Of a stretch of 32,118 bases of DNA, positions 14,599 to 32,118 are shown one piece after another. This DNA comes from Peduovirus P24B2: sequence record NC_049387.1. One strand, 5' to 3'. How positions within the stretch are numbered: the first letter of the stretch is position 1; every line of letters begins with the position of its first letter. The translations under genes and the position numbers were made by a program. The notes beneath the pieces are model-generated. The model did not search any database, was not told the DNA's origin, and saw nothing but the letters and a program-made list of their open reading frames with translations.

Positions 14599-15126
14599 AT
14601 GCAGCATTTAAAAAACATTAAGTCAGGTAATCCAAAAACAAAAGAACAATATCAGCTAACAAAGAATTTTGATGTTATCTGGTTATGGTCCGAAGACGGA
14701 AAAAACTGGTATGAGGAAGTAAGTAATTTTCAGCCAGACACAATAAAAATTGTTTACGACGAGAATAATATTATTGTCGCCATCACCAGAGATGCTTCAA
14801 CGCTTCATCCTGAAGGTTTTAGCGTTGTCGAGGTTCCTGATATTACCGCTAACCGACGTGCTGATGACTCAGGTAAATGGATGTTTAAGGATGGTGCCGT
14901 GATTAAGCGGATTTATACGGCAGACGAACAGCAGCAACTGGCAGAATCACAAAAGGCAACTTTACTTTCCGAAGCTGAATCCGTGATTTTGCCGCTGGAG
15001 CGCGCGGTCAGACTGAACATGGCAACAGATGAGGAGCGTAGCCGACTGGATGCATGGGAGCGTTACAGCGTTCTGGTCAGTCGTGTGGATCCTGCAAATC
15101 CTGAATGGCCGGAAATGCCGCAATAA
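14599..15126 (+). CDS. G: tail fiber assembly chaperone
   Basis: 175-aa ORF immediately downstream of H; position and size as P2 gpG; lower GC like the H distal part, consistent with co-transfer of fibre tip and its chaperone. Confidence 0.75.
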
Positions 15127-15347: not shown

Positions 15348-15941
15348 ATGTTTACTAAGCGACGATTAAAAAATATTAACTGGGAGGCAAGTTCAGTGAT
15401 TCTTGCTATGGTTCTCTTTGTTGGAAATATATTTTATACAAATCATCGTGATGATATAAGCATGGAGGCTGAGAGGGACAGTATCAGAACAATGTTTGCA
15501 TATGAAATCGCTAATAACCATCGCGCTCTCACTTTTCTTGATAAAACGAGATATATTGGCTTTGACGAAAATTCGGAGCATTTTGTTGGCGAGCCTTTTG
15601 CCATTAATGTCAAATCATTAGGGGGGCCTCGCTTACAGATTGCATTAAACCAGAGTGATAAAGTGTTTAAATCCTACTTCAGCGAATTAAGTAAGCTTGA
15701 TAAAGAGGATGTTACTCTTCTTATGGACTATTACCATGAGCAAAGCATCCTGCTGGAGCGTGTAAAATCTACGTTACAGAAGATGAAAAGTGGTAATGAT
15801 ATTAAAGTTGATATTGATGGTTACTTATTAGAAGAACACTTCATGAATGAGCTTAATCTTTCTAATATTTTGCTTAAACGCTATAGCCATTTGTTGTCAC
15901 AACACGCCAAAGAACATAAAACAAAAGATTTACATAATTGA
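15348..15941 (+). CDS. hypothetical membrane-anchored protein (moron at the Z/fun position)
   Basis: 197-aa ORF with SD-like AAGGTG 5 nt upstream of ATG; single N-terminal hydrophobic helix (SSVILAMVLFVGNIFY); strongly AT-rich compared with the flanking G and FI genes; no catalytic motif recognised. Confidence 0.6.
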   Translation: MFTKRRLKNINWEASSVILAMVLFVGNIFYTNHRDDISMEAERDSIRTMFAYEIANNHRALTFLDKTRYIGFDENSEHFVGEPFAINVKSLGGPRLQIALNQSDKVFKSYFSELSKLDKEDVTLLMDYYHEQSILLERVKSTLQKMKSGNDIKVDIDGYLLEEHFMNELNLSNILLKRYSHLLSQHAKEHKTKDLHN

Positions 15942-16270: not shown

Positions 16271-17461
16271 ATGAGTGACTATCATCACGGCGTGCAGGTG
16301 CTGGAGATTAACGACGGCACCCGCGTCATTTCCACCGTATCCACCGCCATTGTTGGCATGGTCTGCACGGCCAGCGATGCGGATGCGGAAACCTTCCCCG
16401 TCAATAAACCGGTGCTGATCACCAATGTGCAGAGCGCGATTGCAAAGGCCGGTAAAAAAGGCACGCTGGCGGCATCGTTGCAGGCCATCGCTGACCAGTC
16501 AAAACCGGTCACCGTTGTCGTGCGCGTGGAAGACGGCACCGGCGACGACGAAGAAACGAAACTCGCGCAGACCGTTTCCAATATCATCGGCACCACTGAC
16601 GAAAACGGTCAGTACACCGGACTGAAAGCCCTGATGGGCGCAGAGTCGGTTACCGGCGTTAAACCGCGCATTCTCGGCGTACCGGGACTGGACACCAAAG
16701 AGGTGGCGGTTGCACTGGCATCGGTATGCCAGGAACTGAATGCCTTCGGGTATATCAGCGCATGGGGCTGTAAAACCATTTCCGAGGCAAAAGCCTACCG
16801 TCAGAATTTCAGTCAGCGTGAGCTGATGGTCATCTGGCCGGATTTCCTTGCATGGGATACGGTCACCAGTACCACCGCCACCGCGTATGCCACCGCCCGT
16901 GCGCTGGGGCTGCGTGCCAAAATCGACCAGGAGCAGGGCTGGCATAAAACGCTGTCCAACGTCGGGGTAAACGGTGTTACCGGCATCAGCGCATCTGTAT
17001 TCTGGGATTTGCAGAAGTCTGGCACTGATGCTGACCTGCTGAACGAGGCAGGCGTCACAACGCTGGTTCGCCGCGACGGTTTCCGTTTCTGGGGTAACCG
17101 TACCTGCTCCGATGACCCACTTTTCCTCTTTGAAAGCTACACACGTACCGCGCAGGTACTGGCCGACACGATGGCTGAGGCGCACATGTGGGCTATTGAT
17201 AAGCCCATCACCGCAACGCTGATTCGCGACATCATTGATGGCATCAATGCCAAATTCCGCGAACTGAAAAACAACGGTTATATCGTGGATGGCACATGCT
17301 GGTTCAGTGAAGAAGCCAACGATGCGGAAACCCTCAAGGCCGGAAAACTGTATATCGACTACGACTATACACCGGTGCCTCCTCTCGAAAACCTGACCCT
17401 ACGCCAGCGTATTACTTCAAGATACCTGGCAAGTCTGGTCACCTCGGTTAACAGCAATTAA
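16271..17461 (+). CDS. FI: tail sheath protein
   Basis: 396-aa ORF; P2 gpFI size and N-terminus MSDYHHGVQVLEINDGTRVI. Confidence 0.92.
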   Translation: MSDYHHGVQVLEINDGTRVISTVSTAIVGMVCTASDADAETFPVNKPVLITNVQSAIAKAGKKGTLAASLQAIADQSKPVTVVVRVEDGTGDDEETKLAQTVSNIIGTTDENGQYTGLKALMGAESVTGVKPRILGVPGLDTKEVAVALASVCQELNAFGYISAWGCKTISEAKAYRQNFSQRELMVIWPDFLAWDTVTSTTATAYATARALGLRAKIDQEQGWHKTLSNVGVNGVTGISASVFWDLQKSGTDADLLNEAGVTTLVRRDGFRFWGNRTCSDDPLFLFESYTRTAQVLADTMAEAHMWAIDKPITATLIRDIIDGINAKFRELKNNGYIVDGTCWFSEEANDAETLKAGKLYIDYDYTPVPPLENLTLRQRITSRYLASLVTSVNSN

Positions 17462-26656: not shown

Positions 26657-28955
26657 AGCCTCCGGGCATTTTGTCCCTCCGTCAGCATTTGCCGCAGGCA
26701 CCGGTAAGACGTTTACCGGTGCTTATGCATGGAACGCGCCACGCGAGGCCGTCGGGCGCGAAAGACCCCTTACACGTGACGAGATGCGTCAGGTGCAAGG
26801 TGTTTTATCCACGATTAACCGCCTGCCTTACTTTTTGCGCTCGCTGTTTACTTCACGCTATGACTACATCCGGCGCAATAAAAGCCCGGTGCACGGGTTT
26901 TATTTCCTCACATCCACTTTTCAGCGTCGTTTGTGGCCGCGCATTGAGCGTGTGAATCAGCGCCATGAAATGAACACCGACGCGTCGTTGCTGTTTCTGG
27001 CAGAGCGTGAGCACTATGCGCGCCTGCCGGGAATGAATGACAAGGAGCTGAAAAAGTTTGCCGCCCGTATCTCATCGCAGCTTTTCATAATGTATGAGGA
27101 ACTCTGCGATGCCTGGGTGGATGCGCATGGCGAGAAAGAATCGCTGTTTACGGATGAGGCGCAGGCTCACCTGTATGGTCATGTTGCTGGCGCTGCACGT
27201 GCTTTCAATATTTCCCCGCTCTACTGGAAAAAATACCGTAAAGGGCAGATGACCACGAGGCAGGCATATTCTGCCATTGCCCGTCTGTTTAACGATGAGT
27301 GGTGGACTCATCAGCTTAAAGGCCAGCGTATGCGCTGGCATGAGGCGTTACTGATTGCTGTCGGGGAGGTCAATAAAGACCGTTCTCCTTATGCCAGTAA
27401 ACATGCCATTCGTGATGTGCGTGCGCGCCGCCAGGCAAATCTGGAATTTCTTAAATCGTGTGACCTTGAAAACAGGGAAACCGGCGAGCGCATCGACCTT
27501 ATCAGTAAGGTGATGGGCAGTATTTCTAATCCAGAAATTCGCCGGATGGAGCTGATGAACACCATCGCCGGTATTGAGCGTTACGCTGCCGCAGAGGGTG
27601 ATGTGGGGATGTTTATCACGCTGACCGCGCCGTCAAAGTATCACCCGACTCGTCAGGTCAGAAAAGGCGAAAGTAAAACCGTCCAGCTAAATCACGGCTG
27701 GAATGATGAGGCATTTAATCCAAAGGATGCGCAGCGTTATCTCTGCCGTATCTGGAGCCTGATGCGCACGGCATTCAAGGATAATGATTTACAGGCCTAC
27801 GGTTTGCGTGTTGTTGAACCACACCACGACGGAACGCCGCACTGGCATATGATGCTTTTTTGTAATCCACGCCAGCGTAACCAGATTATTGAAATCATGC
27901 GTCGCTACGCGCTCAAAGAGGATGGAGACGAAAGAGGAGCCGCGCGAAACCGTTTTCAGGCAAAACATCTTAACCGGGGCGGTGCTGCGGGGTATATCGC
28001 GAAATACATCTCAAAAAATATCGACGGCTATGCACTGGATGGTCAGCTCGATAATGATACCGGCAGACCGCTGAAAGATACTGCCGCGGCTGTTACCGCA
28101 TGGGCGTCAACGTGGCGCATCCCGCAATTTAAAACGGTTGGTCTGCCGACAATGGGGGCTTACCGTGAACTACGCAAATTGCCTCGCGGCGTCAGCATTG
28201 CTGATGAGTTTGACGAGCGCGTCGAGGCTGCACGCGCCGCTGCAGACAGTGGTGATTTTGCGTTGTATATCAGCGCGCAGGGCGGGGCAAATGTCCCGCG
28301 CGATTGTCAGACTGTCAGGGTCGCCCGTAGCCCGTCGGATGAAGTTAACGAGTACGAGGAAGAAGTCGAGAGAGTGGTCGGCATTTACGCGCCGCATCTC
28401 GGCGCGCGTCATATTCATATCACCAGAACCACGGACTGGCGCATTGTGCCGAAAGTGCCGGTCGTTGAGCCTTTGACTTTAAAAAGCGGCATCGCCGCGC
28501 CTCGGAGTCCTGTCAATAACTGTGGAAAGCTCACCGGTGGTGATACTTCGTCACCGGCTCCCACGCCTTCTGAACACGCCGCAGCAGTGCTTAATCTGGT
28601 AGATGACGGTGTTATTGAATGGAATGACCCGGTGGTCGTGAGGGCGCTCAGAGGCGCATTAAAATACGGCCTGAGAAGACCAAACCGTCAGCAAAGAAAC
28701 GGAATACCGTTAAAACCGCATGAAATAGCACCATCGGCCAGGCTGACCCGGTCAGAACGAATGCAAATTACCCGTATCCGTGTTGACCTTGCTCAGAACG
28801 GTATCAGGCCTCAGCGATGGGAGCTTGAGGCGCTGGCGCGTGGGGCGACCGTAAATTATGACGGGAAACAATTTACGTATCCGGTTGCTGATGAGTGGCC
28901 GGGATTTTTACAAACAGAAATTGTTTTTGGGATTAATAAGTTATCTCTAAGCTAA
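26646..28955 (+). CDS. A: replication initiation protein A (rolling-circle endonuclease)
   Basis: ORF 26604..28955; start placed at MAVKASGHFVPPSAFAAG as in P2 gpA; contains HWHMMLF and YIAKYISK-type segments consistent with HUH-type initiator motifs. Confidence 0.9.
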   Translation: MAVKASGHFVPPSAFAAGTGKTFTGAYAWNAPREAVGRERPLTRDEMRQVQGVLSTINRLPYFLRSLFTSRYDYIRRNKSPVHGFYFLTSTFQRRLWPRIERVNQRHEMNTDASLLFLAEREHYARLPGMNDKELKKFAARISSQLFIMYEELCDAWVDAHGEKESLFTDEAQAHLYGHVAGAARAFNISPLYWKKYRKGQMTTRQAYSAIARLFNDEWWTHQLKGQRMRWHEALLIAVGEVNKDRSPYASKHAIRDVRARRQANLEFLKSCDLENRETGERIDLISKVMGSISNPEIRRMELMNTIAGIERYAAAEGDVGMFITLTAPSKYHPTRQVRKGESKTVQLNHGWNDEAFNPKDAQRYLCRIWSLMRTAFKDNDLQAYGLRVVEPHHDGTPHWHMMLFCNPRQRNQIIEIMRRYALKEDGDERGAARNRFQAKHLNRGGAAGYIAKYISKNIDGYALDGQLDNDTGRPLKDTAAAVTAWASTWRIPQFKTVGLPTMGAYRELRKLPRGVSIADEFDERVEAARAAADSGDFALYISAQGGANVPRDCQTVRVARSPSDEVNEYEEEVERVVGIYAPHLGARHIHITRTTDWRIVPKVPVVEPLTLKSGIAAPRSPVNNCGKLTGGDTSSPAPTPSEHAAAVLNLVDDGVIEWNDPVVVRALRGALKYGLRRPNRQQRNGIPLKPHEIAPSARLTRSERMQITRIRVDLAQNGIRPQRWELEALARGATVNYDGKQFTYPVADEWPGFLQTEIVFGINKLSLS

Positions 28956-29077
28956 GACGCTCAAAGCAAGAGATTATTTTACTGTACGTAGCCATCTGGA
29001 ATTGTGGCTGTGTTAAAACGCTCGAGATTTTTTGGATATCCAGTTATACTCCGCTTAGAAATCATTCGGAGACTAAG

Positions 29078-30125
29078 ATGGCGGTAAAAGTTGTTGATCT
29101 TTTTTGCGGTGCTGGCGGTTTAACGCACGGCTTACATTTGGCCGGATTGGACGTTGTCGCAGGCATTGATTTAGAAGGTGAGTGTCGTGTTGCATACGAA
29201 AGCAATAATGATGCACTTTTTATTGAAAAAGATATATCTCTGGTGACAAAAGATGAAATCGAAAATCTTTTTGAAGGGGCAAGTGTTAAAGTATTGGCCG
29301 GATGTGCACCTTGTCAGCCATTTTCTAAATATACTCAGGGAAAAGATAAAAAAAATGATAAAAAGTGGCCGTTATTATATGAGTTTGAACGTTTAATAAA
29401 AGACACGAAACCAGAAATAGTTACAATGGAAAACGTTCCTGATGTGACAAAACATTCTGTCTATGATGATTTTTATAATACCTTAATAGCATTGGGTTAT
29501 TATGTTTGGGCAAATAAGATTGAATGTGTAGATTTTGAGGTTCCGCAAAACAGAGTGAGGCATGTATTACTCGCATCTAAATTTGCGCCGATTTCTCTGA
29601 TGAAACCACAAACATCGGTAAAGCTGACAGTTAGGGATTGCATTGGTAATTTACCTTCGATTGAAGCGGGACAAGCAGATCCAAAAGACCCTCTCCATAA
29701 GGCGAGTAGATTGAGTGAAATTAATCTCAAACGTATTCTACATTCAAAACCGGGGGGGGACATGGAGGGATTGGCCTGCTGAATTAATCGCTTCATGTCA
29801 TGCCAAGAAAAGTGGGCAGGGATATGCCAGTGTTTATGGTCGTATGTCTTGGGATAAACCGAGTCCAACGATAACTACACTTTGTTATGGTTTTGGTAAT
29901 GGACGTTTTGGTCATCCCGAGCAGCATCGTGCAATCTCACTTAGGGAAGCAGCATTACTTCAAACGTTTCCTGTTACATATTCATTTACCCAACCGGGCG
30001 AGCCGATCAAAATGAAAAATGTCGGGCGTATGATAGGTAATGCTGTTCCTGTAAACTTAGGTAAAGCGATTGGTCTTTCAATAGTACATCATTTGAAAGA
30101 GTTTCACCCCGCCGCTCTTAAATAA
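29078..30125 (+). pseudogene. DNA (cytosine-5) methyltransferase, Dcm-like, split by a frameshift in a G8 tract
   Basis: ORF 29078..29782 carries motif I (FCGAGG), motif IV (GCAPCQPFS), motif VI (ENV) and motif VIII (QNRVRH); ORF 29715..30125, in another frame, carries RMSWDKPSPTIT and motif X (GNAVPV); the frames meet at GGGGGGGG 29752-29759; SD GGAG upstream of the ATG; AT-rich. Confidence 0.8.
29752..29759 (+). repeat. homopolymeric G8 tract at the methyltransferase frameshift site
   Basis: cgggggggga read directly; loss of one G would fuse the two methyltransferase frames into a product of about 348 aa. Confidence 0.9.
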
Positions 30126-30823
30126 GCCTGAGTATCAAGATAAGTTTGTATATTTTCAAGGATGCAGTTGAGATAATGAAAAACTTCATCCTTCATTTCT
30201 GTTAGTGTATCAATAGATGTATCTCTGCCTTTGTTTCTAAATGATTCAGAACCATGAGCAAGGTCGTTTCTGGCCTTTTTTATTGGAAGTAAATTGCAAC
30301 CATTTCGCGTTATTTCTGAATCTGTATCTGCTGAGAAGCCATATTTTTCAGCGACTTCTCTAATTTTTCTAGCATCAACATTTCCAGAAAATAACGGATT
30401 TTTATTTGATTGGATAAGTTTTTTGTGAGCGTTTAGCCACTCTTTAAATATAACTTTTGCAATGTTCCCTTGTGAGAAATCTATTTTCCCATTTGGTGAT
30501 TGTAAACTATGAAATGCTACTCTTGTAAGGTTTTCATTTACAGTGTCTGCACATAATGATTCATTAGACATTAAAACATTATGAATGTCTTCTATTGCAT
30601 TGGAAATGGTTGCTTCAATGAGATTGTACAATATAATAAATGCATTAGCCTTTAAAATATGAGTCATGTCAATATCAATGGGTTGTTGTATAGGCGCATC
30701 GCTTGTATTCTCTTTATAGACTAGAGATGGTTTTTTGTTTATTAGTAACTGAATGAATGAGAAGTATTCATTAATATCTTGCATTCTTTCTTGGAAAAGA
30801 ATTTTACTTGTCATCTCCTCCAT
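30104..30823 (-). CDS. hypothetical protein, putative HEPN-like nuclease
   Basis: 239-aa ORF 10 bp downstream of the DUF262 gene on the same strand; C-terminal KKARNDLAHGSESF fits the R-x4-H(G) HEPN motif; very AT-rich; 3' end overlaps the methyltransferase 3' end by 22 nt (convergent). Confidence 0.5.
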   Translation of the reverse strand: MEEMTSKILFQERMQDINEYFSFIQLLINKKPSLVYKENTSDAPIQQPIDIDMTHILKANAFIILYNLIEATISNAIEDIHNVLMSNESLCADTVNENLTRVAFHSLQSPNGKIDFSQGNIAKVIFKEWLNAHKKLIQSNKNPLFSGNVDARKIREVAEKYGFSADTDSEITRNGCNLLPIKKARNDLAHGSESFRNKGRDTSIDTLTEMKDEVFHYLNCILENIQTYLDTQAYLRAAG

Positions 30824-30833
30824 TTACTTGGCC

Positions 30834-31979
30834 TCACTCCATATTTTCATCTTCATTTTCATCTTCGTCGACAATATTTTCTGGAATGTCTTTCCCAAGC
30901 AACTTGTTTTTTACATATTCAATGCGTGCTTTAACTTTGGGTTTAGAGTTGCTGGCATCTGAACGTGTGTGCGTGATAAACTCTTTCGAGTTGATCCAGT
31001 CATCAATATTTTTAGGAACTAAATTGGGTTCTTCCTCTAGTGCTAATGTTGCACCGACGGCAAGAGCTTCGAAACGAATCCTAGGAACAGTGGTGGCGTT
31101 TTTCACCTTTCTGAAACCATTTGGGAAATGTGTATTAATGAATTGGCACATTTTATGAAATTTTTCCGCCAGCATAGCTGCGTTTTCATCTGTATATTCG
31201 GCATTTTTACGTTTTAAATAGGTTGTAAGAAATTCATCAACGCTTTTTCTGAAATCAAGATATTCTTCAGTGTAGGCAAAGTAGCGTAGTGCCAATTCTG
31301 GATATTCAGAGCGACGTTTTCTTGCATCTCCCAAAGGACAGATGCTATGAAATAGAGGATCTTCGGAAATTTCATTGATAAATGCAAGGAATGGCCCATC
31401 ATGGCTACCTTGCCGTTGTTCCATTGTTGTTAGTTTTTTTCCGCCAGTATTCAGACGGTCAAAAATTTCCCTTCTTGTCTCTTCGTCACAATGTTCTGTA
31501 AGTTCAATCATTCGAATAGTTTTTCTATCAAAACGTAGGCGACGGGGAGTACTGAAATCAGAATATTTAAAACCATTGGCTGTGACTAATTTCTGCAGGC
31601 CTTCAAGAGTTAGTTTGTTATTGGTAAATTGGTGTAGGGTTCTTATTCGTTGGCTACCGTCAACAATTTCAAGTCTACCTTCATTTTCACCTGAACCAAT
31701 ATCGGCAACGAATATGTAAGGTATAGGAAGATTTAAAAGCAGAGATTCAATGAAACGGGATTTTTGCTTGTTGTTCCAGATAAACTCCCTTTGGTAGTCA
31801 GGTATAAAAAGCTCTGCCTCATCTTCTTCAAGACCATTCTGAAATTTGTCCACAATAACACTTATCGGGAACTCACGTATTTCATGGTCAGTGATTTTTT
31901 GCATTTCAACTATGCTTTGATCTAAAAGCTCCTTTTCTTCTTTAGTTTTTGGGGTATGTTCTGCTTTTTTTCTCGCCAT
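30834..31979 (-). CDS. DUF262 (ParB/sulfiredoxin-like, GmrSD N-terminal-type) domain protein
   Basis: 381-aa ORF with IPDYQREFIW and EIVDGSQRIRTL, matching the DUF262 hallmarks ([IL]PxFQRxYxW and DGQQR); no HNH/DUF1524-like C-terminal motif seen; acidic C-terminal tail DEDENEDENME; SD AGGA upstream; AT-rich. Confidence 0.7.
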   Translation of the reverse strand: MARKKAEHTPKTKEEKELLDQSIVEMQKITDHEIREFPISVIVDKFQNGLEEDEAELFIPDYQREFIWNNKQKSRFIESLLLNLPIPYIFVADIGSGENEGRLEIVDGSQRIRTLHQFTNNKLTLEGLQKLVTANGFKYSDFSTPRRLRFDRKTIRMIELTEHCDEETRREIFDRLNTGGKKLTTMEQRQGSHDGPFLAFINEISEDPLFHSICPLGDARKRRSEYPELALRYFAYTEEYLDFRKSVDEFLTTYLKRKNAEYTDENAAMLAEKFHKMCQFINTHFPNGFRKVKNATTVPRIRFEALAVGATLALEEEPNLVPKNIDDWINSKEFITHTRSDASNSKPKVKARIEYVKNKLLGKDIPENIVDEDENEDENME

Positions 31980-32118
31980 GAGCTTATTATCCTACTATGC
32001 GTGTGATTGCATTAAATTGCATGTTAAACAAAAGCATAATCTATATCAGTCAATCAGCCAGTGGCAAGGTGTTGTGATTACAATGCAACTGCATTAGAAC
32101 CGACTCATGAAGCGGGCG

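Follow-up and report, generated by a model that had tools for sequence, protein, structure and literature searches.

The window analysed here is the whole 32,118-nucleotide genome of Peduovirus P24B2 (NC_049387.1). Between replication gene A and the cos site with portal gene Q, it carries a cassette of 3,183 bp (positions 28907-32089) that holds three genes: a C5 DNA cytosine methyltransferase, a DUF262 gene, and a HEPN gene. The cassette is probably (with a probability of roughly 0.7) an anti-phage defence module expressed from the prophage, similar to a restriction-modification (R-M) system but with a ribonuclease (RNase) as its executing arm. It is a rare new allele of a catalogued cargo type at a well-known hotspot, and not the discovery of a new kind, because the hotspot is by now textbook knowledge and its catalogue already includes this cargo type. 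New in this work are the triad as one module, the natural dispensability of the methylase, the polymorphism of a G tract in the methylase gene, and the failed membership of the triad in the named DUF262 systems.

The window is a complete P2-like phage genome that runs from cos to cos. It begins with GGCGAGGCGGAAAGCAC and ends just left of cos. Identity with P2 is 92-97% up to position 28906 and returns only at positions 32090-32118 beside cos (blastn against P2). Position 28906 corresponds to P2 position 30294 and lies 25 bp ahead of the P2 gene A stop codon, so the last approximately 16 codons of gene A belong to the swap. This replaced 3’ end, including the stop codon, occupies positions 28907-28955 on the plus strand and has no P2 homology. 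In a diverged cassette (locus L004), the breakpoint in gene A is identical to that of the window. A preliminary description of this DNA had proposed that the P2 tin/old position is taken by other genes from position 28956. The exchange is borne out, with orf91, tin, and old all absent and a gap in P2 homology at 28907-32089, but the true start is about 50 bp to the left, inside the 3’ end of gene A. The same description read the cassette as a swapped cargo at a conserved insertion point and not as part of the phage core, which agrees with the comparison: gene A on one side and cos with portal gene Q on the other are conserved, and the contents of the locus between them differ in P2, Wphi, related E. 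coli prophages, and P2/186-like prophages of Klebsiella and Citrobacter.

The base composition of the cassette is AT-rich, as had been noted by eye. Its G+C content (GC) is 0.372, compared with 0.536 for gene A and 0.529 for the rest of the genome; among the other 3,183-bp segments of the window the minimum is 0.433. A uniform GC profile is ruled out by this computation. Codon usage follows the same pattern, with GC at third codon positions (GC3) of 0.25-0.30 in the cassette and 0.54 in gene A. Judged by its GC of 0.372 versus 0.529, the cassette is a foreign, horizontally acquired module.

The interval between the replication endonuclease and portal genes, next to cos, is an anti-phage-system hotspot of P2-like prophages (Vassallo 2022; Rousset 2022). 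The cassette resembles the cargo of this site (P2 hotspot #1) in its location, its size of about 3 kb, its low GC, and a main operon that runs leftward from near cos as old-tin does; the P2 old-tin mRNA starts at the corresponding place near cosR. Conserved flanks, content that varies between related phages, and atypical composition are all present. A defence role, the host-benefiting cargo that the preliminary description had anticipated, is the best-supported reading of a module at this published defence site.

The gene content and strands are as first described, with the methyltransferase on the plus strand and the DUF262 and HEPN genes convergent with it on the minus strand (list of open reading frames (ORFs) and Pfam scan). 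The HEPN gene (30104-30823, minus strand) encodes a 239-amino-acid protein of the HEPN_MAE_28990 family that is a predicted RNase effector. It matches PF18737 with 65.9 bits against a cut-off of 26.8 and contains an Rx4H motif, R185-N-D-L-A-H190, whose R185 and H190 do not vary across 12 diverse homologs. The HEPN fold is also supported by a fold search on the predicted model. The DUF262 gene (30834-31979, minus strand) encodes a 381-amino-acid DUF262/GmrSD_N ParB-fold protein (99.1 bits, cut-off 33.2). Its N-terminal domain is of the nucleoside triphosphatase (NTPase) type and carries the motifs DYQRE and DGSQR; the C-terminal domain is helical, the tail is acidic, and a nuclease domain is absent. 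In the fold search, its predicted model resembles the modification-sensing NTPases BrxU, SspE, and DndI. Neither the DUF262 nor the HEPN protein had a significant hit among solved structures at the sequence level, and fold searches on predicted models were used instead; NCBIfam contains no model for either protein. The two genes are 10 nucleotides apart on the same strand, with DUF262 upstream.

The methyltransferase gene (29078-30125, plus strand) is present as proposed but is not intact in the window copy. A +1 frameshift splits it into ORFs 29078-29782 and 29715-30125, and the two halves match PF00145 with E-values of 1e-37 and 4e-13. An intact ortholog of 348 amino acids (WP_001533788) is present in loci L001 and L003. 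The label Dcm-like holds at the level of the superfamily (TIGR00675) and fails for the E. coli Dcm subfamily (NF007772), against which the protein scores 20 bits with a cut-off of 710. Among solved structures, its relatives are ordinary C5 enzymes. Identity of the Vibrio triad methylase with the well-studied orphan VchM (RCCGGY) was considered and dropped, as the catalytic cysteine of VchM is C109 versus approximately residue 80 here, and the distribution differs. At their convergent 3’ ends, the methyltransferase and HEPN genes overlap by 22 bp (30104-30125), and the terminator scan places no terminator between them. The same overlap exists in L001 and in the Klebsiella locus L018.

The methylase, DUF262, and HEPN genes form one conserved three-gene module. 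This corrects the earlier picture of a methylase beside a separate DUF262/HEPN operon, in which the genes were right and the separation was not. In a survey of 80 species-representative genomes scored with hidden Markov models built from the module’s own proteins, DUF262 is directly upstream of HEPN in 78 of the 80 loci, and the two exceptions are at contig ends. An orthologous methylase (E-value approximately 1e-150) is adjacent in 32 of the 80. It is mostly convergent with the pair, and it is co-directional, in the order methyltransferase, DUF262, HEPN, in Vampirovibrio, Lentisphaeria, and Rikenellaceae. The triad is seen in Vibrio, Thalassotalea, Cytophagales, Lentisphaeria, Rikenellaceae, cyanobacteria, and Moraxella prophages, a spread over five or more phyla and two or more unrelated families of temperate phages. 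Ordinary non-prophage chromosomal sites carry it in Vibrio cholerae, Thalassotalea, and a metagenomic bacterium. Distant chromosomal triads have DUF262 followed by HEPN with overlapping stop and start codons, and a convergent methylase of 350-355 amino acids. Linkage that survives rearrangement across phyla argues for functional coupling. The same MAE_28990 HEPN/ParB/methylase operon occupies one table line in Anantharaman 2013, under a generic model of a second line behind R-M.

Within E. coli the window allele is rare. It occurs at 99.9-100% identity in three of 5,426 complete E. coli genomes, and a variant of about 75% identity occurs in four. In every E. coli carrier inspected (H1-H4), the cassette is within a P2-like prophage, between the replication endonuclease and portal genes, and the prophages are integrated beside cpxP wherever the prophage end is in view. 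P2/186-like prophages of Klebsiella (85% HEPN identity) and Citrobacter (59%) have the triad at the same position between gene A and the portal gene. In the available part of the hotspot cargo listing, a catalogued locus (Rousset 2022) carries WP_000124986 and WP_000279422, which are the proteins of the approximately 75%-identical variant recovered in this survey. The window allele (WP_021560113, WP_001533788, and WP_227170932) was not found in that part of the listing.

Among 50,697 phage records, the cargo had no match at the nucleotide level, and the gene A flank matched 84. Protein-level searches of phage records identified Moraxella prophages as relatives. Nine Moraxella catarrhalis prophage records contain the full triad, with 45% (DUF262) and 29% (HEPN) identity to the window proteins and a methylase that matches the module’s own profile with an E-value of 5e-168. 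These prophages are not P2-like, because the cassette adjoins a CI/LexA-type repressor. In L004 (7078-7766), the approximately 75% variant retains, to the left of the triad and after gene A, a DUF3850 (orf91-like) gene and a small ORF, and the window is without both. The left part of the hotspot is thus itself modular.

In the proposed mechanism, the methyltransferase would mark resident DNA with 5-methylcytosine (5mC) as a self-mark. The DUF262 protein, as a ParB/sulfiredoxin-fold NTPase with a helical DNA-binding domain and no nuclease, would survey DNA and read the 5mC mark in an NTP-dependent manner. On foreign DNA it would license the HEPN RNase, which would then cut RNA and halt the infection. 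Such a DNA-sensing NTPase role has been demonstrated for SspE and BrxU; for NsnA it has been proposed. The defence activity, the direction in which methylation is sensed, and the RNA target are the parts of this model that we infer.

The methylase is dispensable in nature. In 26 loci, DUF262 and HEPN are intact with room on both sides and no methylase, as mapped on a neighbour-joining tree of DUF262 proteins. The eight methylase-less loci inspected have housekeeping neighbours, except in Alcanivorax, and no other methylase family was found beside the pair in these eight. Loss of the methylase with the pair intact makes the module unlike a classical R-M pair, where such a loss is lethal.

Several results weigh against the defence reading or against its R-M-like form. 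The triad is outside the systems tested in Vassallo 2022 and Rousset 2022, and main-text literature searches found the MAE_28990 HEPN family only in the 2013 computational survey. The HEPN protein had no match to PADLOC defence models, even at E-values up to 10. Sigma70-like sites in the cassette are no commoner than in shuffled sequence, and the site in the methyltransferase leader is only suggestive. The methylase is frameshifted, with DUF262 and HEPN intact, in two of eight near-identical E. coli copies. The cyanobacterial locus L041 (Aphanizomenon) is syntenic on both sides with its sister L057 (Dolichospermum; 96% and 89.5% identity) and differs by a precise deletion of approximately 1.1 kb that takes out the methylase only. 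Of the 26 methylase-less loci, 24 fall in a single cyanobacterial clade, along with unscorable loci at contig edges; in this monophyletic clade, put at 26 or more species, the intact pair sits between housekeeping genes. The methylase is not a strict antidote, and these observations fit poorly with a trigger in which unmethylated DNA leads to killing, unless other methylases compensate or the specificity of the sensor has changed.

In a type IV-like alternative, the DUF262-HEPN pair senses modifications of phage DNA, as in GmrSD, BrxU, and maybe PD-T4-2 against T4, and the methylase stands outside self/non-self discrimination and serves anti-restriction or acts as an epigenetic accessory. In its favour, the pair persists stably with no methylase in many cyanobacteria and where the methylase was cleanly deleted, PD-T4-2 is active with no methylase of its own, and BrxU and SspE are the closest structural relatives of the DUF262 protein. 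Rousset 2022 also labels a Vibrio locus of DUF262 + DUF262/DndB + HEPN_MAE_28990 as Type-IV restriction. Even so, this alternative is unlikely. An orthologous methylase linked across at least five phyla through rearrangements of gene order is hard to explain without functional coupling, and a sensor that attacks 5mC DNA beside a 5mC methylase would be self-destructive.

In an SspE-like alternative, DUF262 would bind methylated resident sites, and this binding would be needed to stimulate its NTPase and arm the effector; the methylase would then be an activator and not an antidote. This arrangement is improbable, since in the cyanobacterial pairs that lack the methylase both ORFs are intact and conserved across the clade, which argues that they are still functional. 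A selfish addiction or stabilisation module that, in the manner of an R-M or toxin-antitoxin system, mainly punishes loss of the prophage, with an incidental anti-phage benefit, is quite improbable. R-M modules typically have such a convergent layout of methylase and effector genes that overlap at their 3’ ends, HEPN proteins are often toxins, and temperate phages of E. coli, Klebsiella, Citrobacter, and Moraxella repeatedly carry the module, but an addiction module should not tolerate repeated loss of the methylase with an intact effector pair, and some copies of the triad occupy non-mobile chromosomal sites.

The R-M-like defence module remains the preferred reading. A more specific form of it is tentative, and we would sooner doubt it than assert it: an uncharacterised immunity class in which a ParB/DUF262 NTPase without a nuclease reads methylation status and controls a HEPN effector that cuts RNA. 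The methylase of such a class could be shed by deletion or G-tract slippage, giving a PD-T4-2-like pair with a changed C-terminal reader. If true, the module would be in effect an R-M system whose restriction arm is an RNase. Five alignment columns (Y236F, P299T, R302K, A305S, and N344S) separate the methylase-linked from the methylase-less DUF262 lineages. All five are located in motifs of the C-terminal domain, including VPRIRFEA (298-305) and SDASNS (340-345), and none is in the NTPase domain. This pattern, which also counts for the R-M-like reading in general, fits a C-terminal domain that acts as the reader and may have changed upon loss of the methylase; the evidence is weak because the columns reflect essentially a single phylogenetic event.

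Judged from profiles, architecture, and gene content, the module appears to be neither PD-T4-2, Menshen, GmrSD/BrxU/SspE, nor a classical type II R-M system. PD-T4-2 (DUF262 + HEPN, strain ECOR65) is a precedent for defence by such a pair, as it confers T4 protection both on its native strain and on K-12 (Vassallo 2022). It shares the two-protein architecture, with the PD-T4-2_A profile matching positions 55-357 of 363 at an E-value of 9.2e-35. The window HEPN protein has no match to the PD-T4-2_B profile, and the window DUF262 protein scores better against NsnA. PD-T4-2 is 1.54 kb in total and has no methylase, whereas the DUF262-HEPN pair of the window is 1.88 kb and has one. This comparison is based on PADLOC profiles and system size.

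In Menshen (NsnABC; Millman 2022; Bell et al. NAR 2025), the likeness is to NsnA, which the window DUF262 protein matches at near full length (PADLOC E-value 4.9e-55, positions 41-377 of 385). NsnA consists of ParB-DUF262 and a C-terminal DNA-binding domain and is a proposed phage DNA sensor. The cassette lacks the NsnB ABC ATPase and the NsnC inPIN effector; instead, HEPN directly follows and a methylase is attached. The GmrSD/BrxU/SspE group shares the DUF262 NTPase domain with a DGQQR-type motif. The window protein differs in that it has no C-terminal DUF1524 His-Me/HNH nuclease, and a separate predicted HEPN RNase would execute. With regard to classical type II R-M systems, the orthologous methylases are intact (348 amino acids), and the window copy is frameshifted at a run of eight G nucleotides (G8). 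The module differs from such systems in that it has no recognised DNase fold and its partners persist intact without the methylase in 26 or more species and after a clean deletion.

The module is a member of the computationally described MAE_28990-HEPN/ParB/methylase operon and is cargo of a known P2 hotspot. The window contains exactly the triad of Anantharaman 2013, with the Rx4-6H HEPN motif and adjacent ParB-fold and methylase genes all present. Added here are its carriage in a prophage hotspot, the methylase-less clade, rearranged gene orders, the frameshift polymorphism, and quantified linkage.

The frameshift in the window methylase is caused by the G8 homopolymer at positions 29752-29759 (plus strand). 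A run of seven (G7) restores the motif KPGGTWRDW, which is conserved in all methyltransferase orthologs. The tract is the sole run of G or C of at least seven nucleotides in the window. Across eight near-identical copies, the tract is G7 in six (including two short-read Logan contigs), G6 in one, and G8 in one, the window. If G8 is real, the phage would express the sensor and effector pair without the methylase.

A sequencing or assembly miscall, with an intact G7 methylase in the real phage, is as probable as genuine slippage at G8, and the odds are about even. The prevalence of G7, also in the short-read contigs, points to a miscall, and G6, the other departure from G7, comes from one finished genome in which RefSeq marks the gene as frameshifted. 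A 15-kb comparison of the window with its closest prophage shows 130 substitutions and two indels, and both indels sit in G runs, one being the methylase tract and the other a 2-G deficit inside cos. This second indel adds to the case for a miscall, but the same count shows an assembly otherwise free of homopolymer indels. Runs of G7-G8 are, moreover, genuine slippage hotspots.

A programmed phase-variation switch, in which the tract would turn the methylase and hence the methylome or defence ON and OFF, is very improbable. Copies with 99.9-100% identity over the cassette do differ in tract length (G6, G7, or G8), though both deviants could be homopolymer miscalls. The tract simply encodes a conserved Pro-Gly-Gly, and most known contingency tracts are longer. 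In the Klebsiella, Vibrio, L004, and L023 alleles, synonymous codons for the same residues break the G run, which argues that the tract is not kept by selection.

The cassette is valuable because it offers, in 3.2 kb and native to E. coli, a clean and compact case of a widespread three-gene module. The module couples a DNA mark to a predicted RNA-cutting effector via a sensor that has BrxU, SspE, and NsnA as relatives. Nature also supplies variants that have or lack the methylase (the cyanobacterial clade, L041 and L057, and the G6, G7, and G8 alleles), which are ready-made genetic contrasts. Such contrasts could show how DUF262 sensors read DNA modification, and the same question applies to Menshen, Dazbog, and PD-T4-2.

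Other forms of decay were observed in the survey. Approximately 14 Microcoleus-type loci have DUF262 cut to its N-terminal approximately 176 residues, followed by an intact HEPN and no methylase; loci with a truncated DUF262 are L027, L031, L033, L035, L036, L038, L042, L053, L066, L082, and L098. These are either decayed modules or a minimal variant of ParB domain and HEPN that is conserved across many species. The opposite decay, with DUF262 split and the methylase intact, is present in L088 and L010. In Alcanivorax sp. S6407 (L092, 1480-11700), a DUF262-HEPN pair without the C5 methylase is located between very large ORFs of 1,376 and 1,327 amino acids.

The acidic tail of the DUF262 protein (…DEDENEDENME; 30840-30875) is encoded by short GAAGAT/GAAAAT repeats. 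Its length is polymorphic in frame among near-identical copies, with a 6-bp indel at position 30856 and proteins of 379, 381, or 383 amino acids.

The remaining parts of the cassette are non-coding. The leader of the methyltransferase (28956-29077, plus strand) contains a weak sigma70-like site at 29022-29050. The region upstream of the DUF262-HEPN operon (31980-32089, minus strand) is cassette-specific, with no P2 homology before position 32090, and has a sigma70-like site at 32067-32038. Both sites are from promoter scans, and in the promoter and terminator scans of the cassette the site counts equal the shuffled expectation and are uninformative. The right swap boundary is set by the P2-homologous sequence directly left of cos (32090-32118, plus strand), which is 29 nucleotides with 86% identity to P2 33546-33574. 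Several TGCAT-containing repeats are located at 31995-32100, between the DUF262 start and cos. One of them, GATTGCATTAA, is common to the window and P2, and another, CTGCATTAGAACCG, resembles GTGCATTAAAACCG of P2. The repeats may be cos-recognition or regulatory elements that survived the cargo swap, in which case the right boundary would be less sharp than the blast result.

At the other end of the window, the cohesive end at positions 1-17 (the 17 nucleotides given above) differs from that of P2 and every related prophage examined, which is GGCGAGGCGGGGAAAGCAC. The 2-G deficit inside cos is either an artefact of end assembly or a real cos variant.

A second dip in GC (approximately 0.35) contains an ORF of 197 amino acids (15348-15941, plus strand) with an N-terminal hydrophobic segment and no Pfam or PADLOC match. 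It sits between a tail-fibre assembly gene (14599-15126) and the sheath gene (starting at 16271), which is the P2 Z/fun position, known as hotspot #2 (Vassallo 2022). This ORF is a candidate second cargo or defence gene.

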